64,000 bases of DNA from a virus, in the IMG/VR virus record IMGVR_UViG_3300045988_136773. The stretch is one strand, 5' to 3'. The notes under the pieces are model-generated. The model had not been told where the DNA came from. It made no database searches and saw only the letters and a list, made by a program, of their open reading frames with translations. A program made the position numbers and the translations under genes. Numbering within the stretch: position 1 is the stretch's first letter; every line of letters begins with the position of its first letter. Positions 14,075-63,127 of the stretch are shown one piece after another.

Positions 14075-14090
14075 TCGTTATATATAATAG
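14075..14090 (+). promoter_or_regulatory. phage promoter-like motif, copy 1 (tcgttatatataatag)
   Basis: One of 11 copies of TCGTTA(T/G)(A/T)(T/G)..., all upstream of transcription units. Confidence 0.55.
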
Positions 14091-14198
14091 AGGATGAAAA
14101 CGACACTGATTCATCCAACATCGTAATTTCGATGTTAAATGTGTGTAGGGAATCTCCAATGAGGAGAGTACTACCGTCTGTGGGTTGGCGGTAGACCA

Positions 14199-14269
14199 GT
14201 CGAAATAGCTTAACTGGATAAAGCACCCGTAATGGGATGTTGTTGGTTCAAATCCAGCTTTCGGCACCA
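14199..14269 (+). tRNA. tRNA-like element with truncated anticodon arm
   Basis: Acceptor gtcgaaa/tttcggc, D arm gctt/aagc, T arm gttgg-ttcaaat-ccagc, encoded CCA. Only 17 nt lie between the D and T arms (ccc-gtaat-ggg hairpin). Confidence 0.45.
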
Positions 14270-14295
14270 AGTCTGATACGTAAGGATGTGCTTAT

Positions 14296-14886
14296 ATGAC
14301 ACCAAATCAACTATTTCAAGATAATCAGAATCTCGTAAAATTCTGCTATAATAAGTACATAAAGCACCGTAGCATATCAGATACAGAAGATATCATGCAG
14401 CAAGGAATGCTGGCACTTTGGAAAGCCGCTCTACAATATGATGAATCCAAGGGAATTGCGTTTTCTACGTATGCTACACATTACATAAGTGGATATATGC
14501 GTCAGTATGTAAGAGATAAATGTAACTTAATACGAATACCAAGAACAGTATTTTTGTCGAACAATGAAAAGCTAATTAACCTAATATCAAATGTAGACTC
14601 ACTTGATAGGACAATCGGCGGTACATCTGATTCAATTACACTTATTGAAAAGATTGAATCAGATCCAGATGACTACAGGAAATTAACTAAGGATCTCATC
14701 GATACGTTTCTACGTACTATTAGAAATAGACGAGATAGAGAAATCATGAGAGTTTATTATTATGCAGTTGCAAACGGAGACAAGGTGACACAGAAACAGA
14801 TTTCAACAAAGTTTCAGGTATGCCGATCTACTGTAGCACGCATAATTGATAAGTACAATTCAGAATTTAGAGAGTTCATTGAATGA
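14296..14886 (+). CDS. sigma-70 family sigma factor (group 3/sporulation-like size)
   Basis: Region 2: LALWKAALQYDESKGIAFSTYATHYISGYMRQYVRD. Region 4: TQKQISTKFQVCRSTVARII. Confidence 0.8.
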   Translation: MTPNQLFQDNQNLVKFCYNKYIKHRSISDTEDIMQQGMLALWKAALQYDESKGIAFSTYATHYISGYMRQYVRDKCNLIRIPRTVFLSNNEKLINLISNVDSLDRTIGGTSDSITLIEKIESDPDDYRKLTKDLIDTFLRTIRNRRDREIMRVYYYAVANGDKVTQKQISTKFQVCRSTVARIIDKYNSEFREFIE

Positions 14887-14923
14887 ACTTCTGAATCATC
14901 AAGTGCAATTTAAGTTTTTCCAC

Positions 14924-14939
14924 TCGTTATATATAGTAG
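14924..14939 (+). promoter_or_regulatory. phage promoter-like motif, copy 2 (tcgttatatatagtag)
   Basis: Lies 25 nt upstream of the first canonical tRNA. Confidence 0.55.
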
Positions 14940-14963
14940 AGCAGAAAATAAGAAATTGCAAAT

Positions 14964-15049: not shown

Positions 15050-15052
15050 AAT

Positions 15053-17062: not shown

Positions 17063-17688
17063 CGTAGTATCTTGACAATCGAATATTGTATTGTGTGTAT
17101 GCAGCAACTCAGTGCAGATAGTTTAACCAACTTGCTGAGAATTTGTCTGTAAATCAAGTAGATAGCATATTAACTGATAAGCTCGTTGCTATAATCGGCA
17201 GTATTGGTAACATATTGTTGAGGATTGAAAACAGTCTCTTGGTGACAAATGTGCTGACATTACTGTACACAAAATCACGGAATCTTGTCGCTGTGGAAAT
17301 AGATACTTGTAAAATACTACAAGTGGAATCCTAGTTAGGTGTAAGCTGATTACTTATGCAAACCTAGGAAATATCAAAACACAGTCTTACTTGCACTGAA
17401 CCTAGGAAACTAGGGTATAAGATGAGATTCTGGTTCGAGTAGCCCAATGTGCAAGGAGAAATTATATGAATGGATATAATTATAAAATTCTGAATGGTTC
17501 GGGTGAAAGTTGCAAGTAACCAATCTTGTGTAGGATTTGACGTATGCTGGGACAAGAAGCTAAGGGTCGCTCCCAAACGCTCAGACTTGTTTCCCTAGTG
17601 GATGAATATATGTGCGGTAAAACAGTTGGTACGGCGAAGGTCGGTTGCATATTCACAATACAGTATTTGATTGTTGAGATATTGAGAT
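17063..17688 (+). ncRNA. candidate large structured RNA B (unclassified)
   Basis: 626 nt between tRNA-Ser and tRNA-Gln; only short spurious ORFs. Helices include 17305-10/17319-24 and 17549-56/17586-95. aacctaggaaa is repeated at about 17361 and 17399. Confidence 0.35.
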
Positions 17689-19471: not shown

Positions 19472-19553
19472 GCAGATGTGGTGAAAGCGGCAGCCACATA
19501 GATTGAGTTCTAGCCTTTGTAGGATGCAGGTTCAAATCCTGCCATCTGCACCA
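19472..19553 (+). tRNA. Leu-like type II tRNA with a 6-nt anticodon loop
   Basis: Acceptor gcagatg/catctgc, A73, CCA, long variable arm. Anticodon arm (a)taga-ttgagt-tcta(g): 4 bp plus an A.G mismatch, 6-nt loop (possible GAG). Confidence 0.5.
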
Positions 19554-20579: not shown

Positions 20580-20595
20580 TCGTTATACATAGTAG
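20580..20595 (+). promoter_or_regulatory. phage promoter-like motif, copy 3 (tcgttatacatagtag)
   Basis: 48 nt upstream of ATG 20643. Confidence 0.5.
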
Positions 20596-23583: not shown

Positions 23584-25341
23584 TCAAAATCCCACGCATA
23601 CAATATATACAAGATATAAAGACATGCCATTTTTTATGCCTGATCTTACAAATTGATATTGTTGTTCTGGACTAATCTTTTTAGTGATGTGTCCAGAACA
23701 ACAATTGCATCTGCCACTTCTGTGTGAACTAACATCGACAGATTTCAGTTCTGAAGACTTTAATTTGATTTCAAGTTTCATAGTTTGACGATCCATTGGA
23801 ATGACATTAATGAAGTCTAGCACAACTCGTGATATATCATTGAGTTCATCAATTGTCATATCGCGGGATTCCGGACCACATATTTCTTGAATATAAGTTT
23901 TTATACGCTTAGCAGGATCTATAATGTCCTCCCCGTTATCAGGATTTTTAAGTGATTCTAATTCTGACTTTGCATCATCAAGCTTTGCATTTAACTCTGA
24001 TGCTTTGTTCGAATACTCAGACTTTGTAATAGCCTCGTCCATATACAAATCTAGAAGTCTGTCCTGCTTTACTTTTAGTTTTTGAATGTTAGATTCCAAT
24101 ACGGCTATTTTTGATTTTCCGGATTCTGTAGTAGTCACAGACTCATAAATTTTCAGGAACTCAGATACCCACTCATCAATATCAGAAATGATACTCTTAT
24201 ACACATCATTTAAAATCTTGTAGATTTCTGATTCCATAAGTGCAAAAGACTTACAGCACGAAGCTGTTTGTCTTTTCTTTTCTCTACAAATCCATTGATA
24301 TATAGGCTTACCTTGACTAACACTATTAGAGTAGCTTGTTCTCCAGTATGTTCCATGCTCACTGCATTTAATTTTACCAGAAAGCGGACTCTGACTTTTT
24401 ATGGATCTGGTTCTAGCTTTAATTGCGGAACTTCGCTCTTTAAATATTACATTACATGCATTCCACTGATCTTCTGACACAATAGCCGGTACGGTTTCAC
24501 CAGTTTCATCCTTATACATGATCCACTCTTCTTCAGGATTAAACCGCTGTGCTTTAGTTCTATAGTCTGTAATAGTCACTTTATTTGCACAATAATAACC
24601 TTTATACTTAGGATTTTGTATAATCCCAGATACTGTATTGTGATGGATCGGGGTTCCATTTCTTCCTAAGTAACCGCGTTTTTCAAGCTCAGTAGCAATG
24701 GATCTTGTACTCCAAGATCCAGTTTCATATAAATTAAAAATCAAGCGAACCATTTCAGCTTCTTTTTCATCAATAATAAGCTTGCAGTTTACTTTTGTAT
24801 ATCCGAAGATACGACTGTTGCCTAACAATCTTCCAGATTCTGCGGCACGTTTATGACCAAATTTAATTCTCTCAGATAGTTTTCGCACCTCATCGGCAGC
24901 AATGCTACTCATAATTGTAAGTCGCAGTTCACTATCTGGATCAATTGTACAGATGTTATCATTTTGAAAAAACACCCCTACACCACATTGGAGCAAATCT
25001 CGTGTATATGTAAGACTATCTATTGTATTTCTTGCAAATCTACTAACCTCTTTAGTAAGTACTAAATCAAACGCTCCGGCTTTTGCATCATCAACCATCT
25101 TTTGAAATTCTACTCTATTTGCAGCAGATTCACCACGGATTCTATCTGCATATCCAGAAACATATGTCCAATTTTTATTTTCTTTAATCATATTTTCAAA
25201 ATGTATAATCTGATTTTCAATAGAATTTTCCTGTTCATCACGTGTTGTCGAAACTCTAGCATAAAATGTTACTCGCAAATTTAAATCAAATATATTTTTC
25301 CTTTGTGTTTGCATTGTGCGTCTAGCTTCATAAATATCCAT
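23584..25341 (-). CDS. large serine recombinase (integrase)
   Basis: N-terminal resolvase motif FYARVSTTRDEQENSIENQ, recombinase domain, Cys-rich zinc-beta-ribbon, coiled coil. Confidence 0.85.
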   Translation of the reverse strand: MDIYEARRTMQTQRKNIFDLNLRVTFYARVSTTRDEQENSIENQIIHFENMIKENKNWTYVSGYADRIRGESAANRVEFQKMVDDAKAGAFDLVLTKEVSRFARNTIDSLTYTRDLLQCGVGVFFQNDNICTIDPDSELRLTIMSSIAADEVRKLSERIKFGHKRAAESGRLLGNSRIFGYTKVNCKLIIDEKEAEMVRLIFNLYETGSWSTRSIATELEKRGYLGRNGTPIHHNTVSGIIQNPKYKGYYCANKVTITDYRTKAQRFNPEEEWIMYKDETGETVPAIVSEDQWNACNVIFKERSSAIKARTRSIKSQSPLSGKIKCSEHGTYWRTSYSNSVSQGKPIYQWICREKKRQTASCCKSFALMESEIYKILNDVYKSIISDIDEWVSEFLKIYESVTTTESGKSKIAVLESNIQKLKVKQDRLLDLYMDEAITKSEYSNKASELNAKLDDAKSELESLKNPDNGEDIIDPAKRIKTYIQEICGPESRDMTIDELNDISRVVLDFINVIPMDRQTMKLEIKLKSSELKSVDVSSHRSGRCNCCSGHITKKISPEQQYQFVRSGIKNGMSLYLVYIVCVGF

Positions 25342-25746: not shown

Positions 25747-28584
25747 TTACATTGATTGCTTCAATAGAACATCAGCAATACCGCTCATGACATAGTTTAC
25801 ACAAGGTAGTGCAACACTATTTCCCAAAGCCTTATATCTTGCACAGTCAGATTCTTCAGCAGTCCAGTTATCTGGGAATCCTTGTAGGCGTTCACACTCT
25901 AATGGAGTTAGTCTACGGACAACCGATTTATAGTCACATGGATCAGCTACTAATGATTCACTTCCGTCACCATAAAATCCACCTTGGCATGTTAATGTTG
26001 CAAACGTATCACTAGCATCATTAAAATCTGCAAATCCTGACTGTGAAAATACCTCTTTCGATTCCAATATATAAGGTGTATTACCGCCGCCTGTTCCCAT
26101 TTTTGCATTCAATGTCTGACATACATTATCTTTAGATATAGTCAATCTAGAATCCTGTGGGTGATTGTCAATCAGAACTGCGATATTCTGATATGCTGTA
26201 AGTGTAGATGACATATCTTCATCATATGGAAGAGTAGCCATTTTTGCACCCTGTTGGAACTTAAATGCCGCTACATACGGGTGTTTACTGTACTGTAAAA
26301 CAGCTTGGTACCCTTGTCCAGGCTTTCCTCTGCTACACTGTAAAGCACCAGTATGATCTCCAAGCCATACAGCACCATCTTGATTTTCTTTTATGCTATA
26401 TGCAACAGCAGGTCTGTCTATAGTATTTAATGTGTAGCAATAATCTTCTTTCCAACCTTTTCCGTTGCATCCAGCTGTATCTGCACGATCTATACCATTT
26501 CCCTGCAAACAATAGACAGTATCAACTACAACATTTCCACCTTGATTACATGTTGGGTTTGTACCAGATGTATCAATCGTTTTTGCAATATCTGTTTTAT
26601 ATATTCCGCTATCAGGATTATCTGATTTCATTGCATTTGATGTAAAACTACAAATTCCGTAGACAGATTTATCTGAATTTAACTCTTGTCCTGCTGGTTC
26701 AAACTGGTTTGAATCTGATACTCTAGTGCTATTTTCAACTTCTCTGGAAGAATTTTCCCACGGCGTTTGGCTCTGCGGATGATTCCCTCGCAAGCTTTCT
26801 GACTTAAATAATATTTCGCTTGCACATTGTCCTCTAAGATCAACGACAAGGAAGATTCTACGTCTGCGTTGGGGGACTCCCCAATATTGAGCGTCGAGAG
26901 TTCTCCAGGCGATGGAATCGGATTTACCCAGAATTTCTCCTGACTTTGTCCATTTCTCAGGTCTAGCCGCAGGAAGTTTTTCCGAAATGAGTCCACAGAA
27001 TTCTTCGAGGACACATTGGAAGTCGTCTCCGTTGTTGCTACTGATTGCGGCTGAGACGTTTTCCCAAACAATGATTTTTGGATACTCATGATTAGTTACC
27101 TCCAACATTTCTTTAATAACTCGAATCTGTTCCATAAATAATCCGCTTCGAGTAAGTTCAAGATCTATACCGCATTTAGGGCATACCTTTACATCACCAT
27201 TTGCACTAAATGATTCTCCACATTCTGGGCAGTATAGTTTGATGCCACCCTGATTTCCGGCCACGGATAAATCTTGGCAGTTATGAACGACAATACTGTC
27301 TGCAATATAACTCTCATCTTCTTCAACTGAGATATTATATACAGTTTTGATTTCACCAGTTTTTATAACATTTCTGCACTTATACCATTTATGCCCGTTA
27401 TATTCAAGTCCAGTTTTTCTGTTTTTATTATCGTGTACAGCTACGGAATATGTATCATGCTGATTAACAGTTCTTCCTTCAATAACCGTCTTTTCAGGTC
27501 TTTTATAATATGATACGGATGTACTATATCCAAGAGATTCCGCAAGCATTCTGATACCAAGTATAAGCCGTTTACTTATTGATGTCACTTTCATTGATGT
27601 ATCCGACTTTCTCCAGCCGTCTGAGTCCATAATGCCATCAAACAAAATTTCCCTGTATTTATGCGACATAGATAGAGCCCAGCCAGGTATGGTCTTATTG
27701 ATAGCACCTTTACCAAAATTATCAACAAGCCATTTACACAAAACCTGAGATGTAAATTTAACTTTTATAACTGTCCTATCTCGTTCTACGCTGTAATTAT
27801 CGCTCATCTTGGATACTATGTTTATGAGTTCATTTTCTTTATCAGATGAATCACATAAATAGATTGTCCCATAACCTTTACCACTCGGTTTTTCTTTTCT
27901 GAATCCATCTCTTACCCAACCATCACCTATCCAACGTCCAACAAAATACCAAAAATCTTCATTTAGTTCAGGCATAGGTTTTTGATTTAAATTAGAGCTA
28001 TAACCTATTGGAATAATGACAGGTTCAGCAGTAATTGGTGTAGCCCACTGCTTGCTTTCCATATCTATAGCAGATGTCCATTGACCAATATTAACTAGAT
28101 GCTTTTTATATCCTTTGCTGTCTGATATGTTATCCCAAATCCTCTTAATATCAGCACTATAAATAGGATGGTTCGCTGTTGTTTCAATAGTAATATTACC
28201 TTTAAGTAAGTATGTTTCAGCTTGTCTACTACCAGTGGCTGTAACTGGTTTCCATCTTCCTTTATGTGTCAGCACAAGATCTCCAACTTTAATATCTGCG
28301 ATTGGAATATACCCAGCTGCGGTTAAAACCATTGTTTCAGCTGGAAAACAGGGACTACCACCAGTGATGACATCAACAGGCTCTAATTTGTGTCCATCAA
28401 GCTTTGTAATATCACCAACATGTTCCATTTTCGGAAAATGACGTTTTGTAATCCGCATTGGAGCAGGTTCAATCTCTGATGCCCATACAGGATCAAAATT
28501 ATACCAACTGCCAACTAGCTCGAATCCACCTATTCCACTGAATAGCGATCCGAGTTTTATTTTTTGATCTGACAAATAAATCAC
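25747..28584 (-). CDS. DNA (cytosine-5) methyltransferase precursor interrupted by an intein
   Basis: Motif I FSGIGGF; GGSP|C...HN|CQDLSVAG (motif IV split); ENV; QRRRRIF; ...GNSVALP (motif X). Confidence 0.85.
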   Translation of the reverse strand: MIYLSDQKIKLGSLFSGIGGFELVGSWYNFDPVWASEIEPAPMRITKRHFPKMEHVGDITKLDGHKLEPVDVITGGSPCFPAETMVLTAAGYIPIADIKVGDLVLTHKGRWKPVTATGSRQAETYLLKGNITIETTANHPIYSADIKRIWDNISDSKGYKKHLVNIGQWTSAIDMESKQWATPITAEPVIIPIGYSSNLNQKPMPELNEDFWYFVGRWIGDGWVRDGFRKEKPSGKGYGTIYLCDSSDKENELINIVSKMSDNYSVERDRTVIKVKFTSQVLCKWLVDNFGKGAINKTIPGWALSMSHKYREILFDGIMDSDGWRKSDTSMKVTSISKRLILGIRMLAESLGYSTSVSYYKRPEKTVIEGRTVNQHDTYSVAVHDNKNRKTGLEYNGHKWYKCRNVIKTGEIKTVYNISVEEDESYIADSIVVHNCQDLSVAGNQGGIKLYCPECGESFSANGDVKVCPKCGIDLELTRSGLFMEQIRVIKEMLEVTNHEYPKIIVWENVSAAISSNNGDDFQCVLEEFCGLISEKLPAARPEKWTKSGEILGKSDSIAWRTLDAQYWGVPQRRRRIFLVVDLRGQCASEILFKSESLRGNHPQSQTPWENSSREVENSTRVSDSNQFEPAGQELNSDKSVYGICSFTSNAMKSDNPDSGIYKTDIAKTIDTSGTNPTCNQGGNVVVDTVYCLQGNGIDRADTAGCNGKGWKEDYCYTLNTIDRPAVAYSIKENQDGAVWLGDHTGALQCSRGKPGQGYQAVLQYSKHPYVAAFKFQQGAKMATLPYDEDMSSTLTAYQNIAVLIDNHPQDSRLTISKDNVCQTLNAKMGTGGGNTPYILESKEVFSQSGFADFNDASDTFATLTCQGGFYGDGSESLVADPCDYKSVVRRLTPLECERLQGFPDNWTAEESDCARYKALGNSVALPCVNYVMSGIADVLLKQSM
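27280..28350 (-). mobile_element. intein (357 aa) with LAGLIDADG homing-endonuclease domain
   Basis: Begins CFPAETMVLT, ends SIVVHN; +1 residue is the Cys of PCQ. LAGLIDADG-like FVGRWIGDGW and ILFDGIMDSDGW. Confidence 0.8.
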
Positions 28585-28600: not shown

Positions 28601-28619
28601 CTACATTTACATATAACGA
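28601..28619 (-). promoter_or_regulatory. phage promoter-like motif, copy 8 (tcgttatatgtaaatgtag, minus strand)
   Basis: 17 nt upstream of the intein-MTase start. Confidence 0.5.
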
Positions 28620-28710: not shown

Positions 28711-28728
28711 TCGTTAGTATTCGTATAG
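28711..28728 (+). promoter_or_regulatory. phage promoter-like motif, copy 4 (tcgttagtattcgtatag)
   Basis: 20 nt upstream of ATG 28748. Confidence 0.5.
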
Positions 28729-29752: not shown

Positions 29753-29770
29753 TCGTTATATACAGTGTAG
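29753..29770 (+). promoter_or_regulatory. phage promoter-like motif, copy 5 (tcgttatatacagtgtag)
   Basis: 34 nt upstream of ATG 29804. Confidence 0.5.
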
Positions 29771-41766: not shown

Positions 41767-41784
41767 TCGTTAGTATAATTGTAG
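41767..41784 (+). promoter_or_regulatory. phage promoter-like motif, copy 6 (tcgttagtataattgtag)
   Basis: 49 nt upstream of ATG 41833. Confidence 0.5.
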
Positions 41785-43508: not shown

Positions 43509-43563
43509 TATCGCATCCTCCTTCAAACAAATGCGTCATGATTCGTCAATATTCTATAAAAGG

Positions 43564-43601
43564 TTTTACCCCATGCAGATATATTTCTACATGGGGTAAA
43601 A
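43564..43601 (-). terminator. terminator after the Bro/KilAC gene
   Basis: 12-bp stem ttttaccccatg/catggggtaaaa. Confidence 0.6.
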
Positions 43602-45401: not shown

Positions 45402-45453
45402 AAGTATACTTCCTTTCAAAATTAACAGTTTATTTTTATTTAGCCTTGTATGT

Positions 45454-45472
45454 CTTACGCTTTATATAACGA
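45454..45472 (-). promoter_or_regulatory. phage promoter-like motif, copy 9 (tcgttatataaagcgtaag, minus strand)
   Basis: 53 nt upstream of start 45401. Confidence 0.5.
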
Positions 45473-45500: not shown

Positions 45501-46148
45501 TTATACCAGCGTCGAGATAAAAATTTTTATAGAAGCAATCACTTCCTCGACACGCTTACGCTCATACATCTTTCTGGGTTTCTTGCCGCTGAGCAGAATA
45601 TCTCGCACAGTTTCGTATACCGGATCACGCTTTGCCATAGCATCAACATAATCCCAAACCTGCTTAGCGGCTACAAAATCTTCCACAGATCTGGTATCAA
45701 TCAGCCGTTCGATATAACGTGGCTTGTTGTCAGAGCACTCCATGATGTCGTCAATGGATTCATCATCGCGAATCTTTTCGAGCGTACTAGCACGGTTCTG
45801 ATACCATCTCCGAACGTCGTTCACATGTCCGAGTGAGTACATGCACTTATATGCCACTGTGTAGATGTACTGCGGCTTGAATCGCTGAGGGTGTTCCTTG
45901 ATGATGTTGACGTTCTTCATCAGATACTGCAACAGTGTAGATACTGCTGTGCACTCATCTACCCACGGATACATGCTGTAGATCTTGTTCCAAGCCATTG
46001 CGATTTCCGGATAGAATGCTACGTACAGTGCAGTTGCTTTCAGTTCGTCAGAAAGCTGTAACCAACCACGAACCTCTGTGTAATCTGTGTCAGTAGCAGA
46101 ATCCAGAGCAGACTTGAACAGCTTGTATGTTTCCTTAAATTCTCTCAT
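45501..46148 (-). CDS. ECF-sigma-like protein, paralog B
   Basis: ALYVAFYPEIAMAW...STLLQYLMKNVNII...YIYTVAYKCMYSLGHVNDVRR aligns with paralog A. Confidence 0.5.
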   Translation of the reverse strand: MREFKETYKLFKSALDSATDTDYTEVRGWLQLSDELKATALYVAFYPEIAMAWNKIYSMYPWVDECTAVSTLLQYLMKNVNIIKEHPQRFKPQYIYTVAYKCMYSLGHVNDVRRWYQNRASTLEKIRDDESIDDIMECSDNKPRYIERLIDTRSVEDFVAAKQVWDYVDAMAKRDPVYETVRDILLSGKKPRKMYERKRVEEVIASIKIFISTLV

Positions 46149-46420
46149 AGTAAATTACCTCCATTTGATTATACTAGTAAATTTTACCAGTTACATTTGA
46201 AAAAAGAAAATGTAGCGGTACTCCCACGGATTTTCTTTTTATAAAATTTTTAACTAATGTTTATCATCTCCAATCGAAGAAAATGTGATTTTGGAATCTG
46301 TTATGCTGGATACATAGTGGAATCAGCTCACTTTCTGAAACTGCAATTTGTTATTGAATATGTATTTCATAAACACTGTTGCTTATACACAGTTTATTGT
46401 GTATATACGCAATACGCTTT

Positions 46421-46811: not shown

Positions 46812-46964
46812 CAACTCTATAACTGATACCTCAACATCAACCTAAGTCATATCTGAAATATTTGTCTTGTAAAATCAATAACGAACAAATTTACGAAAAT
46901 ATATGTCATATTTTGTTGAAATACGCTTCTATTTATGGTATACTATAATGTAGGAGTGATAATT

Positions 46965-50317: not shown

Positions 50318-50842
50318 TTACAGGGTGTTGACTATCATGAAAATCCGTAAAAGAAAACGATATATCAAAAGCAGTAGTAACGTAAACACATTGGAGTTTG
50401 AGATTGTTGTACTTGCAGATGTACTCGTAGACGTTTCTACAGATAATTCGTCATCTACTTTGTGATTGATGGAACTTACAATTATAAGCGATACAAGAAT
50501 ACTGATTACAACTATGACAGCTGTTATGGTAATTCCGAGAATCAGTTTTTTGTTATGTATATGATTTGAATGACATTCTGGTGAATCTAGCTTTGCACTT
50601 GATACTACATCTGCGTTTGTATGTTCACTCTCTAGGTTTTGTTGCGGTTCTTGCACTTTTGTTCCACAAACAGGACAAATACCTGTTTGCATATCAATAG
50701 GGTTCCCACAATTCCAGCACAGCCTGCTGTCATTCGATTTTACGTCTGTTGAATGTACTGCATCTTGATCTATACAAAATCCACATAGATAACAATCTTT
50801 TGCATTATCATCAAGTTCTGTACCACAATTCGGGCATAGCAT
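50318..50842 (-). CDS. double-zinc-ribbon membrane protein
   Basis: CPNCG...CYLCG and CWNCG...CPVCG, then TM helix LILGITITAVIVVISILVSLIIV and a Ser/Thr-rich tail. Confidence 0.65.
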   Translation of the reverse strand: MLCPNCGTELDDNAKDCYLCGFCIDQDAVHSTDVKSNDSRLCWNCGNPIDMQTGICPVCGTKVQEPQQNLESEHTNADVVSSAKLDSPECHSNHIHNKKLILGITITAVIVVISILVSLIIVSSINHKVDDELSVETSTSTSASTTISNSNVFTLLLLLIYRFLLRIFMIVNTL

Positions 50843-50857
50843 AGTAATTCACCTCTG

Positions 50858-52108
50858 TCAGTTTTTCGTTTTTGGTAGCTTTACATTATGATATATTATA
50901 AGTCCTACTATTGCAGTTAAACAGAATGATGCTAATATTAAGAAAAATCCAATTCCGAGTATAGATTTCAATTTCACACCATCTTCAATGATGAATGTTT
51001 GAAATAGATGTTTTAAATCTATAAACGTGACAACTTCTCCGATGATGCCTATTATAGGAGCTCCTACAGCAATGTACTTTTTGTATTTACCTAATGGTTT
51101 TATATAATTCATGATGATGATTAGTATTGGAACTAAAAATATGAGTATGCTGAAAATCGACTTGTTATCCCCTAATTTAAGTTCTTTTATTCCAACTAAA
51201 GTACTAAATACACTTGCAGTAATTCTATTTCCAGTATCTTCTGCGGACTTAGCATAAAAACTTGCAAACGGAAAAAATGTAAATACTAGAGTTATTATTG
51301 AACATATCGTCATAATGTGATTTCTGACAAATTTGTTTTTTATCGGGATATTTTCAAAATTTTCATCATGTGGTTGTGCGGCAGCAGCAGATTTTAATGT
51401 ATTAACTGCTTTTGATGCTATGTGACTTATGGATTGTGACGCTTCAGATCCTGATACTACATACTGATTTGAATTTGATTCCGCAGGCTTAGATACTGGA
51501 TTTGATGCAACTTGTATATGATTAGATTTATTTTGCATCTTTGCAATTTCCGTATCACGATATAACACATCAACGCTATTTGGGCAGCTGTCGATTAACA
51601 ATTGCATAAATTCAAGGTTTCCAATGAAATATACTTCGTAAATATCTGTACCAATGTAATCTGTAAGCTCTTGAAAAATTCCCTTCCACTGCAAATCCCT
51701 GATTTGAATTGAGTTTATCCATTCGTCAATTGATCGATTTTGAATTCTAGTCGTATCGAATGCATGTCCATTTATAGTAATTTTAGTTACAAATGGATTT
51801 TCGCTATACAGAATTGTTACTGTGTTATTTGAACTTATAAGATTTACAGGTGAATCTTTCAGTGCATATTTCACCATTTCAAATGATGCGGCATCACTTT
51901 CAAACAACAGTGTATAATCAGGTTTTCCGGTAAATGACCTTAATTCTTCATATAGGCCTTTCCATTTTACTCCCTTTGAACTCAATGGAAATAGCCATTG
52001 TTCTATCGGGAAATCTCTGATACATTTTGTATCAAGTGTTTTATCATCATAAGATATTTTCAGTGTATCTTTTTCTCTATCGTACACTATCTTTACAATA
52101 GGTTTCAT
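50858..52108 (-). CDS. membrane protein with a tandem-duplicated cytoplasmic domain and about 4 C-terminal TM helices
   Basis: Two roughly 95-aa repeats (...IEQWLFPLSSKGVKWKGLYEELRSFTG... / ...IDEWINSIQIRDLQWKGIFQELTDYIG...). Hydrophobic C-terminal third. Confidence 0.6.
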   Translation of the reverse strand: MKPIVKIVYDREKDTLKISYDDKTLDTKCIRDFPIEQWLFPLSSKGVKWKGLYEELRSFTGKPDYTLLFESDAASFEMVKYALKDSPVNLISSNNTVTILYSENPFVTKITINGHAFDTTRIQNRSIDEWINSIQIRDLQWKGIFQELTDYIGTDIYEVYFIGNLEFMQLLIDSCPNSVDVLYRDTEIAKMQNKSNHIQVASNPVSKPAESNSNQYVVSGSEASQSISHIASKAVNTLKSAAAAQPHDENFENIPIKNKFVRNHIMTICSIITLVFTFFPFASFYAKSAEDTGNRITASVFSTLVGIKELKLGDNKSIFSILIFLVPILIIIMNYIKPLGKYKKYIAVGAPIIGIIGEVVTFIDLKHLFQTFIIEDGVKLKSILGIGFFLILASFCLTAIVGLIIYHNVKLPKTKN

Positions 52109-52121
52109 AGTTTTGTCACCT

Positions 52122-53117
52122 CTATACAGTAAATGTCTTTGCGATTTTATTCTGAATATCCATAGAAAACATAGGAATCTGTATATTCAACAGTTCGTCT
52201 AAATCAAGTTTTGCAATAGTTACTCCAGATTTGCAATTGTTCAGTTCATACTGTCCACATTCGCTTTCTAAAAATGCCTTTACATAATATGGATTTACCT
52301 TGTCTGCGTCTAGTTCTAAAACATACATTCTTCCAACAGCGATTACATTTGCATCTTCAAAGTCGGCAATCTGCGTTTTTGATGTATCTCCGAATTTGGG
52401 AATAATCAAACTCTTATTCGGAATTTTATGATTTAGATAAGAATCTGATTCTTTTAGATATTTGAGTGCAGATGTTTTAGCGTTCGAATTGAGATCATTA
52501 GTGCTAAACGCATACATACTTGTTTCAGATTTAGATATTGCATTTTTCAAGTCTGTTGGATTCATCTCAATTCCACAAATCACTTTCTTTGTAATGCTTT
52601 TGAGTGTCACAGGATTTTCAAAGTTCAAGTTGTGATCGAAATAGCGTACAGGATATAACTGATAGTTTAATGATATGATTTCATCTTTGGATACACAGCG
52701 GCTTATATCTGTATTCGATTTGCATGCTGTTGCAATCTTAGAAATATCGTCATCAGACAGAATCTTATGATTTTCGTTTGTATGATAAGCATCTGTAGCA
52801 TCAACCATATACACGCTACCATCAGATTTACCAAGTACGAGCATAGCAATTTGTGCATTTGTTGTATGCAACAAGCCAGGTTTAAGCGATACGACAGCCT
52901 TTAGTCGATTGTTTTCAATCAGATCTTTTCGGACTGTCTGATATGCTTTTCGATCATCAAATACTCCACCGTTCAAAATGAATACAACTGAATTAGTATC
53001 AGCTGTGTTTACTAAATCCGAAATTGTCATGACATCAGTTTGCGTTGATGGCTTTTTAGAAATTGATTCTTCCAATTCCTTCAAAGAATCCGTTAATTTC
53101 AACTTGATTTGTTTCAT
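52122..53117 (-). CDS. catalytic-motif-less N6-MTase C-terminal region fused to one type I S-like target-recognition domain
   Basis: NNRLKAVVSLKPGLLHTTNAQIAMLVLGK...VYMVDATD resembles the post-NPPY part of gamma-class MTases; no AdoMet or NPPY motif seen. C-terminus GVTIAKLDLDELLNIQIPMFSMDIQNKIA resembles the end of an HsdS TRD. Confidence 0.45.
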   Translation of the reverse strand: MKQIKLKLTDSLKELEESISKKPSTQTDVMTISDLVNTADTNSVVFILNGGVFDDRKAYQTVRKDLIENNRLKAVVSLKPGLLHTTNAQIAMLVLGKSDGSVYMVDATDAYHTNENHKILSDDDISKIATACKSNTDISRCVSKDEIISLNYQLYPVRYFDHNLNFENPVTLKSITKKVICGIEMNPTDLKNAISKSETSMYAFSTNDLNSNAKTSALKYLKESDSYLNHKIPNKSLIIPKFGDTSKTQIADFEDANVIAVGRMYVLELDADKVNPYYVKAFLESECGQYELNNCKSGVTIAKLDLDELLNIQIPMFSMDIQNKIAKTFTV

Positions 53118-53260
53118 TTTACGCCCCCCAAATTGGAATAAATAATTTTTACAAATACATTATATCACATTTCACGACATTGTTCTATTTGCAAATTGTA
53201 CAAATTTTAAAGTGTGTACTGTGTGCAATTTGACGAAAATCATATTGATATACGCATCTG

Positions 53261-53773
53261 TCATTTGTTTATTTTACCAAAGATATAGTTTTGAAACTGC
53301 GTATACAAACGAATATCATCATGCTGGACACCGTTCCGCTTATAATTTTGTATACACACTATCTGCTTCTTTGCTGCGGATAATGGAATACTGCATAGTT
53401 TTACAAGCTGATACACATCATCTACGTTGATAGCCGACAAGACTGGAATCGGGGCTAATAGATTTAATCCAAATCGGTATGCTTCTTCATCAGATAGTTG
53501 GATTCCAGTGAATACACGACCTATTTCGCATGCTATTAAAAGCCTTTGATTTTCGATTGAAGTAGAATCATCTATTAATATACACATCTGTCCGTCAATT
53601 TTAATCAACCCACCAATGATATTTATACGATCTTGTCGTTTTGTTATATCACTCAGTTTTATAATCTTCACTTGAAACACTTTGCAAATTTTTCGAAGTT
53701 TAACAGGCAATGCTGTAATATTGCATTGAATTAAGCATGCTGTACTTTGTTCTATCATATTATAAGATTTCAT
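53261..53773 (-). CDS. ImmA/IrrE-like protein with degenerate metal site
   Basis: QRLLIACEIGRVF occupies the position of the family ..AHELGH.. motif (His to Cys, His to Arg). Paired with the upstream XRE gene. Confidence 0.5.
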   Translation of the reverse strand: MKSYNMIEQSTACLIQCNITALPVKLRKICKVFQVKIIKLSDITKRQDRINIIGGLIKIDGQMCILIDDSTSIENQRLLIACEIGRVFTGIQLSDEEAYRFGLNLLAPIPVLSAINVDDVYQLVKLCSIPLSAAKKQIVCIQNYKRNGVQHDDIRLYTQFQNYIFGKINK

Positions 53774-53809
53774 AAGACCACCTCATGAGTATTATGCTGT
53801 AATTCCGCA

Positions 53810-54268
53810 TCAATATTCATCTGATGAATCTTTTGCATTTTTCAAAGCATTTATGTCAATCCCAGACTGCTCAGATTCGCCTGTATTGGCTTTTGTTGCG
53901 GTGTGACTATAGTTTTCCTCTTGGTTTCGTAGCATCGATTCTAGGGAATCCTGACGCTTGTTCTCATACATCTGCTCTAGCCTGCCAATTATTTTTATCT
54001 GATCTCGATCTGAGAATTTTCGATATATGTGCAACACTTCAATTTCATTCTCAGATAGATTATTTTCAGATTCTTTTCCGGTCAGAATATATTCTGGAGA
54101 TGTACCTAGAAACTCTGCGATTGCAACAATTTTATCCGAAGATGGATTTGTTCCGTGTGTTTTCCAGTCAGATATAGCGGCAGTTGAGATTCCTGTGTAC
54201 GCAGCTAGTTCTTTCTGCATCTTCCCTTTCGATTTTAGCAGCTGAAAAATTCTTTGTGAAATTGTCAT
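53810..54268 (-). CDS. XRE-family HTH regulator (ImmR-like)
   Basis: LKSKGKMQKELAAYTGISTAAISDWKTHGTNPSSDKIVAIAEFLGTSPEYILTG. Confidence 0.75.
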   Translation of the reverse strand: MTISQRIFQLLKSKGKMQKELAAYTGISTAAISDWKTHGTNPSSDKIVAIAEFLGTSPEYILTGKESENNLSENEIEVLHIYRKFSDRDQIKIIGRLEQMYENKRQDSLESMLRNQEENYSHTATKANTGESEQSGIDINALKNAKDSSDEY

Positions 54269-54316
54269 AATTCTGTCTCCTCTCTTTTAGATATATTCAC
54301 AAATAATTCAGTAATC

Positions 54317-54340
54317 CGTATTTATGTATTGACAAATACG
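54317..54340. promoter_or_regulatory. inverted repeat operator candidate
   Basis: cgtattt-n10-aaatacg, just upstream of the minus-strand XRE gene. Confidence 0.45.
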
Positions 54341-54507
54341 TATATACGAATTACAATATGAATATAGCAAGTGCTATCAGTAAATATGGCTGATACATAT
54401 AGGGGATTTTTACAGTCGAGTTTTGCAGTATTTCTTATAGTATAATTTTTTCTTGATGATTTGTCAATAGTATCATTCTGTGAAACCGATTTCATATAGT
54501 AAAAATA

Positions 54508-54548
54508 TAGCCTGTACTATTCAGAATCAGCTGACTAGTACAGGCTAT
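54508..54548 (-). terminator. terminator after minus-strand gene 54566..54958
   Basis: Perfect 13-bp stem atagcctgtacta/tagtacaggctat; T-rich run on the minus strand. Confidence 0.65.
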
Positions 54549-54565
54549 GTTTAGTTTATGATGAT

Positions 54566-54958
54566 TTAGCTTCGGAAAGCAGATTTCACTCGATTGACAA
54601 TATAGCTTAACGCTTGACGATATGTCTGGAATTTGTGTCCGCTCACAATGATTTCAAGACTATCGTATTGTAGGTCATCTGGGTTCTTTTCATTCAAATC
54701 ACGGTAATTTTCAAGTTCCCTAGCATAGTATTCATTTCTAGCATCAAATCTATCCCAATTTTTATTATTGCCCTTATGCTTTGTCAGACGATGATCTGAA
54801 ATTCTAAGATTTAGAATGATTTTCACATTCAGTGCCTCATACTCATCCTCTTTGCAGAGTACAAAATAACATGACTTACTATTATTTCGGTTACTGAAAT
54901 TCGAACCTTCTAATGTTTCAAAGCCAATAGCTTTTAGATTAATTGCAACAGAATTCAT
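54566..54958 (-). CDS. hypothetical protein (start uncertain)
   Basis: ORF-track frame. The Val-rich N-terminus of the 204-aa ORF is antisense to the Thr-rich linker of the plus-strand gene, so the first internal ATG (54958) is preferred. Confidence 0.45.
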   Translation of the reverse strand: MNSVAINLKAIGFETLEGSNFSNRNNSKSCYFVLCKEDEYEALNVKIILNLRISDHRLTKHKGNNKNWDRFDARNEYYARELENYRDLNEKNPDDLQYDSLEIIVSGHKFQTYRQALSYIVNRVKSAFRS

Positions 54959-55028
54959 GAATGCGTAGTAATGCTCTTCTGCGGTTTCTTCTATTACATC
55001 GTCTAATTCAGAATCTGTCAAATTTGGA

Positions 55029-55865
55029 TTGAATGCTGCCGTAATGCCATCGTTGAATGAGTATATGAGAACAGTTGTGGCAGCTGAATTGACTACCACA
55101 CAGGTAACTACTACAGAAACAACCAGTATGACTACTACAACCGCAGAAACTACTACAACAAATCTCATTGACTTAAACAATTATATTGGTTTTTGGCATA
55201 GCTCTGATTTTGGAAACGCTAGAGAATTAACAATATCAAACGTATCTGACAAAACACTAGTGTTTACTCTATGGTACTATCGTTTAAGCTCAATTGATGA
55301 TGTTTCAGCATTGATAGAAGGTAATATTGCTAAGTTTGATACTGGAGATGTGAGTGGATATTTAAAATTTGATGAATCTGCTATAACTGTTGTAATTGAA
55401 AGATCATCATTGGCTTACATGAATGCAGAACAAGTGAAATTTGATGGTAAACATAATCAATCATGGGAAAATGGATCGCCTGATGATACAACTACTGAGG
55501 CTGACACATTTATGCCGTATGAAATCCAAATCAAAAATCCAAAATTAAACATATATGATAAACCAAGCTATAGTGGCAATATCGTAGGAACAATTACAGA
55601 TCAACAATACTACACCATTGTCGAAGAGTACATGGAACCAGGTCATACTTCAAATTTAGATGTTTGGGGAAAATTGAAATCTGGAATGGGCTGGATAAAC
55701 CTATATGATGCTGAACTAGAGGAAGATTCTAGTTACATGGATGAATCTGCAAATGTTTATTGCCCAAGCTGCGGTTATGGATGGTTTACAACTGGCGTTG
55801 GCGATGATGGGTTCACTTGTCCTAGTTGTGGATTTAAATGGAATCCATATGTATATGGATTTTGA
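55029..55865 (+). CDS. Thr-rich-linker protein with SH3b-like domain and C-terminal zinc ribbon (start uncertain)
   Basis: TTTQVTTTETTSMTTTTAETTTT linker; SH3_3-like YDKPSYSGNIVGTITDQQYYTIVEE...WGKLKSGMGWINLYD; CPSCG...CPSCG. Confidence 0.55.
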   Translation: MNAAVMPSLNEYMRTVVAAELTTTQVTTTETTSMTTTTAETTTTNLIDLNNYIGFWHSSDFGNARELTISNVSDKTLVFTLWYYRLSSIDDVSALIEGNIAKFDTGDVSGYLKFDESAITVVIERSSLAYMNAEQVKFDGKHNQSWENGSPDDTTTEADTFMPYEIQIKNPKLNIYDKPSYSGNIVGTITDQQYYTIVEEYMEPGHTSNLDVWGKLKSGMGWINLYDAELEEDSSYMDESANVYCPSCGYGWFTTGVGDDGFTCPSCGFKWNPYVYGF

Positions 55866-57330: not shown

Positions 57331-57349
57331 CTTCTAAAACATATAACGA
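57331..57349 (-). promoter_or_regulatory. phage promoter-like motif, copy 10 (tcgttatatgttttagaag, minus strand)
   Basis: 56 nt upstream of start 57275. Confidence 0.5.
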
Positions 57350-57791: not shown

Positions 57792-57811
57792 TCGTTAGGG
57801 TTTAATGTCAG
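57792..57811 (+). promoter_or_regulatory. phage promoter-like motif, copy 11, weaker (tcgttagggtttaatgtcag)
   Basis: 45 nt upstream of ATG 57856. Confidence 0.35.
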
Positions 57812-60360: not shown

Positions 60361-61688
60361 ATGGTTCCATTGAATTGCAAATGATATCGAAAATTTTGAC
60401 TTGTGATTCACAATCTGACGTTGAAAAACTCTGTGAATTTGACGAAAGCTATTATTCAATCTTCAGACCACATATCCAGTTTATCATGCGGCATCGTGAT
60501 AAATATGGAGAGGTTCCGGATGTTTTCACATTTCAGTCGGAATTTGAGGATGTTGCACTAGTTCGCGTAGATGAACCGATTGAGTACTTAATTCATGAAA
60601 TAAATAAAAACAAGCAGCGCATCATGCTTGTTGAAACTTTTAACAAGCTAAAAGACTTAGGATCTGCTGATGTTACAGAAGCATGGGAGTACTTATCAAA
60701 CCAGTGCGAGAGAGTGGCTATGCTTGATTCATCTCAACCAATGGATTTGGTGAAGGATTCAGAACAGAGAAGCGATCAAGTTTTAGAATATAGTCAGCAA
60801 GAACGAATTCCTACAGGGTTTGACGAAATCGATAAGTGTATGTATGGTGGTTTGTCTACTGTAGAGGAACTTGTAATTCTAGTTGCTCGTACAAATACTG
60901 GTAAGTCATGGGTTGGCACAAGAATGATGGAATCTGCACAAGGTCATGGATTTCCAGTTTTATATTATTCACCGGAAATGCAGGCTAGTTTTCTCGGAAC
61001 TCGATTTGATACATGGCGTGGAAAATTTCAAAATAACCTGCTGTTTCAAGGTCAATATACAGAGCAATATCATGCTTATTTGAAAGATCTTGCATCACAG
61101 ACAACTAGTGCATACGTTTTGGAGGACAAAGATGCTCCAGACGAAGTTGTGAATGTACCATTTTTGAAAAAGCTTGTGAAAAAACATAAGATCAAGCTTT
61201 TAGTCATAGACGGTCTGTCATATATGTCTGATACTGAGAAATCTGATAAAGATTACACCAAGTATAAAAATCTATGTGCGGATCTGTTCCGGCTCAGTAA
61301 ACAATGTGGATGTGCTGTAGTAGTTATGATGCAGGCAAATCGTGAATCCAGAAACAACAAGGATGATAAAGGGGAAGTGTTTCCAAACATTTACAACATC
61401 GAAGGATCTGACCATCCTGCCAGAATTGCTACTCAGGTGTTTGCTATGCGACAGATATTCGATAAACATGTTCTGGACATACGCTTAGAGAAAGCAAGAA
61501 ATGCAAATAATCAGAAACCAGAGTTTTCCTATGCATGGGATATCAATACTGGCAATATGAAATATCTCCCAAGTGCTGATACTATGCCGGCTACAATTGC
61601 TCCAAAGGTTGATCTTAGCGGTACTGTAAGTGTCAATCAACCAGATACGAGCATTGTATTAGAGGATTCTGAGGATGTTGAATTTTAA
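60357..61688 (+). CDS. dnaB: DnaB-family replicative helicase
   Basis: Walker A ARTNTGKSW, Walker B LLVIDGLSYM, RecA-like C-terminal domain, helical N-terminal domain. Confidence 0.8.
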   Translation: MNGSIELQMISKILTCDSQSDVEKLCEFDESYYSIFRPHIQFIMRHRDKYGEVPDVFTFQSEFEDVALVRVDEPIEYLIHEINKNKQRIMLVETFNKLKDLGSADVTEAWEYLSNQCERVAMLDSSQPMDLVKDSEQRSDQVLEYSQQERIPTGFDEIDKCMYGGLSTVEELVILVARTNTGKSWVGTRMMESAQGHGFPVLYYSPEMQASFLGTRFDTWRGKFQNNLLFQGQYTEQYHAYLKDLASQTTSAYVLEDKDAPDEVVNVPFLKKLVKKHKIKLLVIDGLSYMSDTEKSDKDYTKYKNLCADLFRLSKQCGCAVVVMMQANRESRNNKDDKGEVFPNIYNIEGSDHPARIATQVFAMRQIFDKHVLDIRLEKARNANNQKPEFSYAWDINTGNMKYLPSADTMPATIAPKVDLSGTVSVNQPDTSIVLEDSEDVEF

Positions 61689-61705
61689 TCAGTTGAGGTG
61701 TAAGT

Positions 61706-62701
61706 ATGCTTGATATTATATCCGTTTTAGATAAGCTAGAATCCATGAAACTCATCCGGACAAGCCGTAAAGTGGGTAACTATATGCAGATATATTGCCC
61801 GTTTCATTCTGATGGTAAGGAACGTAAACCATCATGTGGTGTTCTGATTTCAGATGAGTACAGAAATGGTCATCGCTATCCAGCAGGGTTTTGTCATTGT
61901 TTTGCATGCCAGTATGCACACACTTTGGATGAGATGATTTCAGATCTTCTGAAATTACATAATATTTCAAAATCCGGATTAGACTGGCTGAAAGAAAACA
62001 TTCCTGGATTTGATGATGATTTAGCGTCATTTGACTTTTTGCTGGATGGAGATACTGTAACATCACTCGTAAACCAGTACGCTATCGATTACTTGAAAAT
62101 ACATTCAAAGACAGAACAAACTTATGTTTCAGAAGAAGAACTTTCAAAGTATCGATATACTGTTCCATATATGTATGATCGTAAACTGACTGATGCTATT
62201 ATAGAAAAGTTTGATATAGGGTATGACGGAAATTGGATTGCTCCCGGCAGAAAAAAGCCTACACCATGCATTACGTTTCCTGTTCGTGATAAATCCGGTC
62301 ATACGTTATTTTTCTGTCGTCGATCTATTGCAGGCAAATTTTTTAATTACCCAACAGGTGTTACAAAGCCTGTATATGGATTATATGAACTTCCTGCTAA
62401 TTGTAAATCTGTTATTGTCTGCGAAAGCTGTTTCAATGCACTAACATGTTGGGTGTATGAGAAACCTGCTGTTGCTTTGCTTGGAACTGGAAACTCATAT
62501 CAAATTCAACAGTTAAAGGAACTTGGTGTAAATGAGTTTGTTCTAGCATTTGATCCAGACGAGGCAGGGCGTAAGGCTACAGAAAAATTAAAACGTGCAT
62601 TGCATAGCGTTGCAATTGTATGGTCTTACGCAAATATTCCTGCTGGTAAGGATATAAATGATCTTACAAAAGATGAGTTTGATAACTTATACGTCGAGTA
62701 A
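61706..62701 (+). CDS. dnaG: DnaG-type DNA primase
   Basis: CHC2 zinc finger CPFHSDGKERKPSCGV...CFAC. Toprim VIVCESCFNAL ... AFDPDEAGRKA. Confidence 0.8.
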   Translation: MLDIISVLDKLESMKLIRTSRKVGNYMQIYCPFHSDGKERKPSCGVLISDEYRNGHRYPAGFCHCFACQYAHTLDEMISDLLKLHNISKSGLDWLKENIPGFDDDLASFDFLLDGDTVTSLVNQYAIDYLKIHSKTEQTYVSEEELSKYRYTVPYMYDRKLTDAIIEKFDIGYDGNWIAPGRKKPTPCITFPVRDKSGHTLFFCRRSIAGKFFNYPTGVTKPVYGLYELPANCKSVIVCESCFNALTCWVYEKPAVALLGTGNSYQIQQLKELGVNEFVLAFDPDEAGRKATEKLKRALHSVAIVWSYANIPAGKDINDLTKDEFDNLYVE

Positions 62702-62720
62702 AATTGCGAGGTGAAACATA

Positions 62721-63098
62721 ATGGCAAAAACTGTGAAGCATAAAAACTCTACAGATCTTGAATCTGTATTGCGTTATTTTAGAGAAACCGTTTTACAGCA
62801 TGATCACGCAAAAGAATCTGTTTCTATCCATGATAAAAAGACAAATGATTTTAATCATGCACTAGAACTCGAAGATTTGAATTATGCAGATCGAGCTAGA
62901 TTAGCCACAAAGCAGATGGAAAACTTAAAGAAAAGACGAGCAGCCAAGGATTATGTGTACGAGTGTCAAGCTCTCGTAGATGTGCTAAGCAGTCCAGAGG
63001 GCATTCGGTTTATAAATAAGTTAAATGAGGCTTTAGGTGCTATGAGAAAACAGGAAAAGCAACATGAATCTCGAGTATACAAGAAGAGATTTCAATGA
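62721..63098 (+). CDS. hypothetical protein
   Basis: ORF track; RBS gcgaggtga. Confidence 0.6.
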   Translation: MAKTVKHKNSTDLESVLRYFRETVLQHDHAKESVSIHDKKTNDFNHALELEDLNYADRARLATKQMENLKKRRAAKDYVYECQALVDVLSSPEGIRFINKLNEALGAMRKQEKQHESRVYKKRFQ

Positions 63099-63111
63099 CA
63101 TTTCAGTTCAC

Positions 63112-63127
63112 TCGTTATATATAGTAG
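63112..63127 (+). promoter_or_regulatory. phage promoter-like motif, copy 7 (tcgttatatatagtag)
   Basis: Identical 16-mer to copy 2; 55 nt upstream of ATG 63182. Confidence 0.55.

Follow-up and report, generated by a model that had tools for sequence, protein, structure and literature searches.

A compact promoter-like motif lacking a -35 element, and its candidate sigma-like readers, in a temperate phage from an uncultured gut Clostridium

The 64,000-nucleotide stretch of DNA analysed here (IMG/VR record IMGVR_UViG_3300045988_136773; the window, meaning the whole of that stretch) belongs to the ~146-kb genome of a temperate phage whose host is an uncultured gut Clostridium, and has a GC content of 37%. 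It encodes a large serine recombinase, two Dcm methylases (one of them intein-bearing), a receiver-less Spo0A_C protein, Bro/ANT antirepressors, a CI-like repressor, a Tad3-like protein, DnaB, primase, and SSB, and it holds 17 tRNAs with an embedded ROOL RNA. Distributed among these genes is a short motif, TCGTTA(T/G)A...TAG (hereafter class 1), which an initial annotation made from the sequence alone read as a phage-specific promoter class. Placement, depletion inside genes, conservation amid diverging flanks, and recurrence across a clade of related phages all supported that reading, and we regard it as very likely that the motif is a promoter class. We further hold it to be reasonably likely that this compact class, in which no -35 element is conserved, is read via a phage sigma-like protein, for which the product of the gene g73 is the best candidate. 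Literature searches returned no publication describing the motif, its letters matching only unrelated primers, and it is a real variant of a known strategy that is apparently undescribed in print.

The window was compared with two IMG/VR contigs, one of which (G002) is 96% identical to it over window positions 34242-64000 and extends 67 kb further, while the other (G001), a provirus, is 122 kb long and 70-80% identical to the window at the nucleotide level. Together, the window and the continuation in G002 cover ~130 kb of the ~146-kb phage genome, with about 15 kb lying outside. The GenBank phage collection contained no near-identical or close record of the window phage, and a search of IMG/VR for relatives by the canonical sigma factor g25 found none, after which relatives were obtained via the protein collection. 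A human-gut contig (L060) carries a 97%-identical sigma, and its prophage end adjoins genes for SASP, a dockerin protein, and glycerate kinase. A profile of the protein family of g73 and its paralog g72 yielded 53 IMG/VR loci on contigs of mostly 120-180 kb, and clade statistics were computed on 32 non-redundant loci totalling 475 kb.

Each of the eleven motif copies listed in the initial annotation was located at its coordinates, and a twelfth good site, absent from that list, was found at 7354 on the plus strand, along with three weaker candidates that the list also lacks, at 11406 and 3964 (plus strand) and 46884 (minus strand; Table 1). The copies at 14924 and 63112, annotated as identical 16-mers, are so, and the same 16-mer precedes the SSB homolog of G001; the CA(C) said to stand before the motif is reflected in a C at position -3 in nine of 12 sites. 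For the spacing, given earlier as 17-56 nucleotides (nt) to a start, we measured 16-59 nt between the 3' end of the motif and the probable start codon at most sites, the exception being 14075: the nearby ATG opens a frame of merely 10 codons, and the first real features downstream are a tRNA-like element at 14199 and, 222 nt from the motif start, the ATG of the sigma gene (14296). This tRNA-like element (14199-14266, plus strand; Rfam tRNA, 47 bits; not called by ARAGORN) has an anticodon loop shortened to ~3 nt and belongs to the 5' leader of that gene, following the motif and preceding the ATG. The weak copy at 57792 has a counterpart in G002 that reads TCGTTATGG. The function of the copy at 11406 is uncertain because its position is coding, and the weak minus-strand copy at 46884 points antisense through two small plus-strand genes toward g73.

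The transcription units that the motif precedes in the window comprise the MazG block, g25, the tRNA/ROOL array, the HNH block, both Dcm genes, the block with Tad3 and thymidylate synthase, Spo0A_C, g72, the Bro gene, the replication module, and SSB. The ROOL RNA (17084-17662, plus strand; Rfam RF03087, 303 bits) is full-length, sits within the tRNA array, and is predicted to be co-transcribed with the array from the motif at 14924. The tRNA at 19472-19553 (plus strand) has the anticodon CTA ('Pyl' according to ARAGORN; Rfam tRNA, 39 bits) and is a potential amber suppressor; the long open reading frames (ORFs) of the virion block stay open when translated with the standard code, so recoding was not evident.

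The word TCGTTA occurs 18 times on the two strands of the window, whereas the 120 words made by permuting its letters occur 48 times on average (34.6 times for those with CG), which amounts to a two- to threefold depletion relative to permuted words. Thirteen of the 18 copies fall outside genes and RNAs, in sequence that makes up 13% of the window, and 12 stand upstream of a gene or tRNA of the same orientation at a distance of up to 120 nt (hereafter, promoter position), for which the permutation mean is 11%; on both the intergenic and the promoter-position measure TCGTTA ranks first among the 120 permuted words. Both the placement and the orientation of the copies fit promoters, and the word is depleted inside genes. 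The same was found in G001, where 26 copies of TCGTTA compare with a permutation mean of 95, and where 38% of the copies are intergenic compared with 6%.

Strong depletion in coding DNA can also be a mark of restriction targets, and the phage encodes several methyltransferases and DNA-binding proteins, both of which could be taken to mean that the motif is not a promoter and is instead an operator for a repressor or activator (CI-like or Spo0A_C-like), the target of a restriction or modification enzyme, or a signal in packaging or replication. Selection against internal promoters would deplete the word inside genes as well, however, and the remaining features of the motif make such a role highly improbable: it is strictly co-oriented with the downstream gene and stands at a short, fixed distance from the ribosome-binding site, the block is asymmetric and non-palindromic, a single copy serves each transcription unit (the tRNA array included), and there is no match to the Spo0A box, TGTCGAA.

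Table 1. Positions of class-1 and class-2 motif copies, candidate reader genes, and other features of the window
Feature	Sequence	Position	Strand	Context
Class-1 element, short form	AATCGTTA			
Class-1 copy, weaker candidate		3964	+	Intragenic
Class-1 copy	TCGTTATATAATATAG	7354..7369	+	GGAGG at motif position 19, GTG 7385; MazG operon; kept in L058-L061
Class-1 copy, candidate internal	TCGTTATATATAACTG	11406..11421	+	Inside DUF1653 gene, 132 nt before SbcC-like gene (11538); kept in L058-L061
Class-2 copy		13307-13318	+	
Class-1 copy	TCGTTATATATAATAG	14075..14090	+	Upstream of tRNA-like element 14199-14266 and canonical sigma 14296-14886
g25, canonical sigma-70-family protein		14296-14886	+	Regions 2 and 4, SigB/F/G-like; downstream of class-1 motif
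Class-1 copy	TCGTTATATATAGTAG	14924..14939	+	25 nt ahead of first tRNA, 17-tRNA + ROOL array
Class-1 copy	TCGTTATACATAGTAG	20580..20595	+	Ahead of ATG 20643 (76-aa gene, then HNH gene); kept in L060
Large serine recombinase		23584-25341	-	
Class-1 copy	TCGTTATATGTAAATG	28604..28619	-	Ahead of intein-containing Dcm gene (25747-28584, -)
Class-1 copy, G variant	TCGTTAGTATTCGTAT	28711..28726	+	Ahead of Dcm gene, ATG 28751
Class-1 copy	TCGTTATATACAGTGT	29753..29768	+	Ahead of ATG 29804; heads long plus-strand block including Tad3-like and thymidylate synthase genes
Class-2 copy		34382-34393	+	After terminator, ahead of tail-fibre-like genes
Class-1 copy, G variant	TCGTTAGTATAATTGT	41767..41782	+	Ahead of receiver-less Spo0A_C gene 41833-42204
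Class-2 copy		42207-42218	+	
g69, 249 aa, sigma-factor fold (predicted)		42777-43526	-	Class-2 motif upstream
Class-2 copy	ACCTTTTATAGA	43553..43564	-	Ahead of g69
g72, g73 paralog with extra C-terminal domain		44565-45419	-	Downstream of class-1 motif
Class-1 copy	TCGTTATATAAAGCGT	45457..45472	-	Ahead of g72 (likely start 45401); homologous position in L065 also TCGTTA
g73, 215 aa, clade-wide family		45501-46148	-	Host-type promoter upstream; paralog of g72
Host-type promoter of g73		46168..46195	-	TGTAAC, 16 nt, TATAAT; ends 19 nt before ATG
Intergenic TCGTTA copy, weak	TCGTTATTGATTTTAC	46869..46884	-	Status uncertain; kept in G002
Class-1 copy	TCGTTATATGTTTTAG	57334..57349	-	Ahead of Bro-N/ANT gene (likely start 57275)
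Class-1 copy, weak	TCGTTAGGGTTTAATG	57792..57807	+	Ahead of replication module (ATG 57856; DnaB-like, primase downstream)
Class-1 copy	TCGTTATATATAGTAG	63112..63127	+	Ahead of SSB-like gene 63182-63904

Beyond the window, G001 holds ~13 copies of cTCGTTATATATAGT(A/G)(G/T), nearly all of them ahead of genes, and loci found by the g69 protein (54-67% identity) keep TCGTTAT in promoter position with differing flanks. Across the 32 clade loci, 120 of the 302 copies of TCGTTA (40%) were in promoter position, the permutations averaging 7%, and the next-best words were the overlapping CGTTAT and ATCGTT; in the complete 166-kb relative G003 the count was 50 of 116. A set of 31 unrelated viral loci lacking both protein families had 12 of its 122 copies (10%) so placed. 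The clade consensus is AA-TCGTTA-t, again with no -35 element, and the core conserved throughout the clade is AATCGTTAT.

Information content is confined to positions -4 to +19, in the 12 window sites and then in 24 sites that include those of G001, and the block has the consensus t-C-(C/A)-(A/C)-TCGTTA-(T/G)ATATAGTAG-A-n-G, also written tC[C/A][A/C]-TCGTTATATATAGTAG-A.G. The looser form TCGTTA-N7-10-TAG describes the set because TAG is shifted by 2-3 nt in some copies. Column information is flat from -50 to -5 in the 24 sites, as it is in 119 clade-wide sites, and a word search for a shared -35-like element between -45 and -8 brought up A/T-rich words alone; the observation in the initial annotation that the motif lacks a properly spaced TTGACA was therefore borne out, nothing being conserved at -35. 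A TTGACA does stand beside the site at 14075, merely 12 bp from the nearest TATAAT, and in contigs with an 80%-identical sigma the block at 14075 is unchanged letter for letter while the flank has gone from cttgacaatca to tctgaccac, with the loss of TTGACA.

At 7354 and at position 25508 of G001, the Shine-Dalgarno sequence begins at motif position 17-19, from which we infer that the transcript starts inside or directly after the block; the block would then be the entire promoter, and TCGTTA could not be a -35 element. It is solely this closeness of the ribosome-binding site that bounds the block to a position near -10. Two registers are possible, one (i) in which TCGTTA would serve as a -10-type element and transcription would begin at the A of TAG, a geometry found in phage phiEco32 (PMC12276001), and another (ii) in which TCG would be an extended -10, TATATA the -10, and A17 the start. 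Since clade-wide conservation is limited to AATCGTTAT, register (i) is favoured. Register (ii) would set G3 at -14, but it would also put an invariant C at -15 and, in most sites, an A at -7, and TATATA is poorly conserved across the clade.

The second register bears on whether host sigma-A itself reads the block as an unusual extended -10 (CGn-TATATA instead of TGn-TATAAT), perhaps after the phage blocks -35 recognition in the manner of Thermus phage P23-45 gp39 or T4 AsiA. With T5-A10 as the -10 hexamer, G3 would fall at -14 in a TGn-like arrangement and the conserved A17 at +1, and several copies contain TATAAT or TATAGT. Both the conserved C at -15 and the A in place of T at -7 are nevertheless disfavoured by the rules of sigma-70 recognition, and the clade has kept AATCGTTAT only, leaving the TATATA part unconserved. 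The same phage, moreover, has genuine TTGACA-17-TATAAT promoters elsewhere in the window, at 21989 (plus strand) and at the integrase gene (25414, minus strand), which are perfect TTGACA-17-TGnTATAAT promoters at places where the host would be expected to recognise them, and unrelated gut-phage loci have no excess of TCGTTA in promoter position. We consider reading by host sigma-A to be quite unlikely.

Extracytoplasmic function (ECF) promoters combine a GGAAC-type -35 with a CGT-type -10, as in the TGAAAC-N16-CGTA of Bacillus subtilis SigW, and the motif resembles them in the CGT core of its putative -10, as g72 and g73 do in carrying an ECF-like IYRIAYNC segment. It differs in that no AAC-type -35 is conserved in the 24 local or 119 clade-wide sites, and profile searches do not assign g72 or g73 to the ECF family. 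A candidate ECF-type -35 at 14075 (TCAAAC-N16-CGT) was rejected as a single case, the relatives having TCAAAT at a different spacing and the columns giving no signal. The late promoters of Bacillus phage SPO1, read by gp33/gp34, have the consensus CGTTAGA-N17-19-GATATT (PMC3601020), and the letters CGTTA of their -35 box are shared with the motif, which is unlike them in being a single block ending at the putative start point, not two blocks. Identity with the SPO1 late promoter was likewise rejected, as there is no GATATT 17-19 nt downstream and nothing is conserved at motif positions 24-30; at 7354 and G001 25508, a ribosome-binding site or start codon is already reached 17-32 nt after the motif start. 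The best match of g25 in the SPO1 group is a gp2.21-type protein of Goe9/SPO1L (26% identity), encoded near terminase and ParB, and g25 resembles gp2.21 and not the sigma factors gp34 or gp28. Geometry and sigma homology both bear out the earlier remark that the resemblance to CGTTAGA may be coincidental.

The class-1 motif is partitioned along the genome with a second promoter-like word. In G002 the block with the portal and tail sheath genes, which runs from 32.4 to 88.5 kb, has no TCGTTA in promoter position, and G001 has no class-1 sites within 34-84 kb. These virion blocks carry (a/t)AACCTT(A/T/G)TATA instead (class 2; window copies in Table 1), with AACCTT.TATA in promoter position in 10 of 23 cases in G002, compared with 0 of 27 for the reversed control, and in 13 of 34 cases in G001, compared with 4 of 40. 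The cores of the two classes, AATCGTTAT and AAACCTTAT, differ at two of nine positions. The second class of G003 is a different one, AACCTGACGTAA, with 13 copies before small genes at 75-88 and 105-110 kb (L136-L138), and has only AACCT in common with class 2 of the window.

As to what reads the class-1 motif, no phage RNA polymerase was found in the ~130 kb seen: Pfam and PHROGs gave no polymerase match in the largest window proteins, no DFDGD-type motif occurs in the window ORFs, and no DxDxD occurs in G002 ORFs of at least 600 aa past the right end of the window. A phage-encoded polymerase (T7-like single-subunit, YonO, or two-barrel) was rejected as reader, there being no candidate gene in that sequence. 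We think it probable that the motif is read with a phage sigma-like protein. The initial annotation had counted four sigma-like proteins in the window, which holds in part: g25 is canonical by Pfam, g69 has a predicted sigma fold, and the sigma likeness of g72 and g73 is suggestive.

The product of g25 has a region 2 closest to SigA and SigB/F/G. Being the single protein in the window that Pfam recognises as a sigma factor, with a motif copy upstream at 14075 through which it might autoregulate, g25 is a conceivable reader, and the initial annotation had proposed one of the sigma-like proteins for that part. Two complete relatives, however, G006 (144 kb with terminal repeats, 100% complete) and G007, have TCGTTA promoters and both of the hidden families, g73 and g69, with no Sigma70_r2 protein, so the canonical sigma is not needed. 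Homologs of g25 above 35% identity are restricted to very close relatives while the motif is clade-wide, and g25 could not start the class because it has no host-type promoter of its own; the chance that g25 is the reader appears very slight. Its absence from the 122 kb of G001 was set aside as a test, being uninformative in a contig that lacks the whole 10.9-25.7 kb block.

The case for the g73 family turns on expression. Besides the host-type promoter of g73 in the window, most relatives have TTGAC(A/T)-17-TATAAT upstream of their g73-family genes, and g73 would thus be made by host sigma-A polymerase, as a sigma factor of middle genes must be. The paralogs g72 and g73 are 28-30% identical. 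Tentatively, we place the reading of the motif with g73 or g72. In L065, at 4180-4340, operator-like TTGTCTA/TAGACA repeats stand on both sides of the host-type promoter that precedes the g73 homolog, and the first step of the cascade may accordingly be under repressor control. In loci L078-L124 the leaders of g73-family genes, from promoter to ribosome-binding site, contain repeated (C/T)ATATCAA(A/G)A words, which clade-wide are also present in the leaders of numerous TCGTTA-driven genes and may serve there in translation or RNA binding.

Several observations weigh against this assignment and the scheme built on it. The g73 and g69 types are not recognised as sigma factors by Pfam, NCBIfam, or PHROGs, and for g72 the NCBIfam sigma match is weak (E about 0.01). 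The g72/g73 family had no PDB match in a sequence-profile search, Foldseek gave E-values of 0.27 or worse against PDB, sigma matches in BFVD were scattered and weak, and the hhalign alignment to a sigma profile was not significant. Judged from models, the fold evidence is much stronger for g69 than for g73 or g72. The presence or absence of g69 and g73 cannot discriminate between them because the two co-occur in all five complete relatives tested, and the g69 of distant relatives has a TATAAT-type promoter, so that g69 could also be early. The association in the clade statistics is partly by construction, because the loci were chosen through the g72/g73 family, and the negative set consists of the 31 unrelated loci only. 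In G003, finally, the TCGTTA sites are nearly genome-wide, and the label 'middle class' may therefore hold only for the subclade of the window.

The motif could instead be a promoter class read by g69, with g73 and g72 being something else, such as co-factors or readers of the AACCT class. Among the non-canonical proteins of the window, only the product of g69 is predicted to have a sigma fold that is clear over its full length: in its AlphaFold2 model (predicted local distance difference test score of 83) the top 50 PDB fold matches are all sigma factors over the full length (~260 columns, match probability up to 0.99), and residues 36-112 align to sigma region 2 by hhalign (E = 0.004). Its family is large (381 detected homologs, no Pfam domain, no meaningful PDB match by sequence-profile search) and is a core gene of the clade, and group-3 sigmas use composite extended -10 elements. 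The promoters of g69 point the other way. In the subclade of the window g69 is always preceded by the virion-type AACCT word, and in L065, L066, L080, and L110 a TCGTTA copy follows that word, as one would expect if a late sigma were switched on from a middle promoter and then reinforced itself. In the window g69 has no host-type promoter, which leaves an early supply unexplained, unlike that of g73. We regard g69 as an unlikely reader of class 1.

The mechanism proposed for reading by a g73-type protein would have the TCGTTA class drive the early-to-middle genes, that is, replication, nucleotide metabolism, methylases, tRNAs with ROOL, regulators, and anti-defence. The block would lie around -15 to +1, TCGTTA would probably confer specificity in the manner of a -10 element, the A/T-rich bases that follow would melt, and the conserved TAG would give the start point; the reader would be the host core RNA polymerase with a highly divergent phage sigma-like subunit, most likely g73. 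In a first step, host-type promoters would yield g73 via host sigma-A polymerase; in a second, TCGTTA promoters would switch on the middle genes, among them g72 and g25 and, for relatives, also g69; and in a third, AACCTT.TATA promoters, probably read by g69, would drive the virion genes and g69 itself. Such an order would resemble that of SPO1 (gp28 middle, gp33/gp34 late), in which host sigma-A is followed by an early phage sigma, the middle class, and a late sigma.

Promoters with a single element have been described in other phages. The middle/late promoters that depend on gp36 of the Escherichia coli podophage phiEco32 have a single AATGTA centred at -11.5 and no -35 consensus, gp36 being a distant sigma homolog that acts on the host core polymerase while the early genes use the host primary sigma (PMC12276001). 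The class-1 motif is like them in having one conserved element near -10 and no -35 consensus. It is unlike them in its word, AATCGTTAT; in belonging to temperate, myovirus-like phages with 120-180 kb genomes and Gram-positive Clostridia as hosts; in having candidate readers with no detectable sequence similarity to known sigmas, gp36 not being among the top fold matches; in having no identified gp79-like partner; and in standing beside a second phage-specific class, with AAACCTTAT as its core. T4 late promoters (TATAAATA) have gp55 as their reader, which works together with gp33 and the gp45 clamp. These promoters share with class 1 the missing -35, the single -10-type element, and the use, here putative, of a truncated or divergent phage sigma on the host core, and they differ from it in their word and in the genes served, which for class 1 are those of replication, tRNAs, and regulators and not those of the virion; for class 1 there is no evidence of sliding-clamp coupling. 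We use phiEco32 gp36 and T4 gp55 as a working analogy; membership of the candidates in those protein families was not supported.

Two further features of the phage lie apart from its promoters. A 4.7-kb segment (50405-55070) with the CI-like repressor, a methylase remnant, and a membrane-protein cluster is inverted in orientation in the 96%-identical G002. The intein of the Dcm methylase (25747-28584, minus strand) has Hint and homing-endonuclease domains, and the DNA polymerase of the same phage, encoded in G002 beyond the window, also bears a Hint-like insert.

Phages of this clade are common in human-gut and rumen metagenomes, and their regulation has gone undescribed. The motif would explain how the tRNA/ROOL array, the methylases, the Spo0A-like gene, and the anti-defence genes are switched on jointly, and a defined promoter word would allow transcription units and temporal classes to be read from sequence clade-wide, while also flagging 'hypothetical' proteins as likely transcription factors and offering compact orthogonal promoter-sigma pairs as candidate genetic tools for Clostridia. 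It is conceivable, though doubtful at present, that two hidden sigma families (the g73 and g69 types) and two single-block words make up the whole programme of the 120-180 kb phages of gut Clostridia. If this is true, the promoter code would be minimal and re-tunable, with a two-base change between AATCGTTAT (middle genes) and AAACCTTAT (late genes), the words used in the subclade of the window, shifting a gene between temporal classes.

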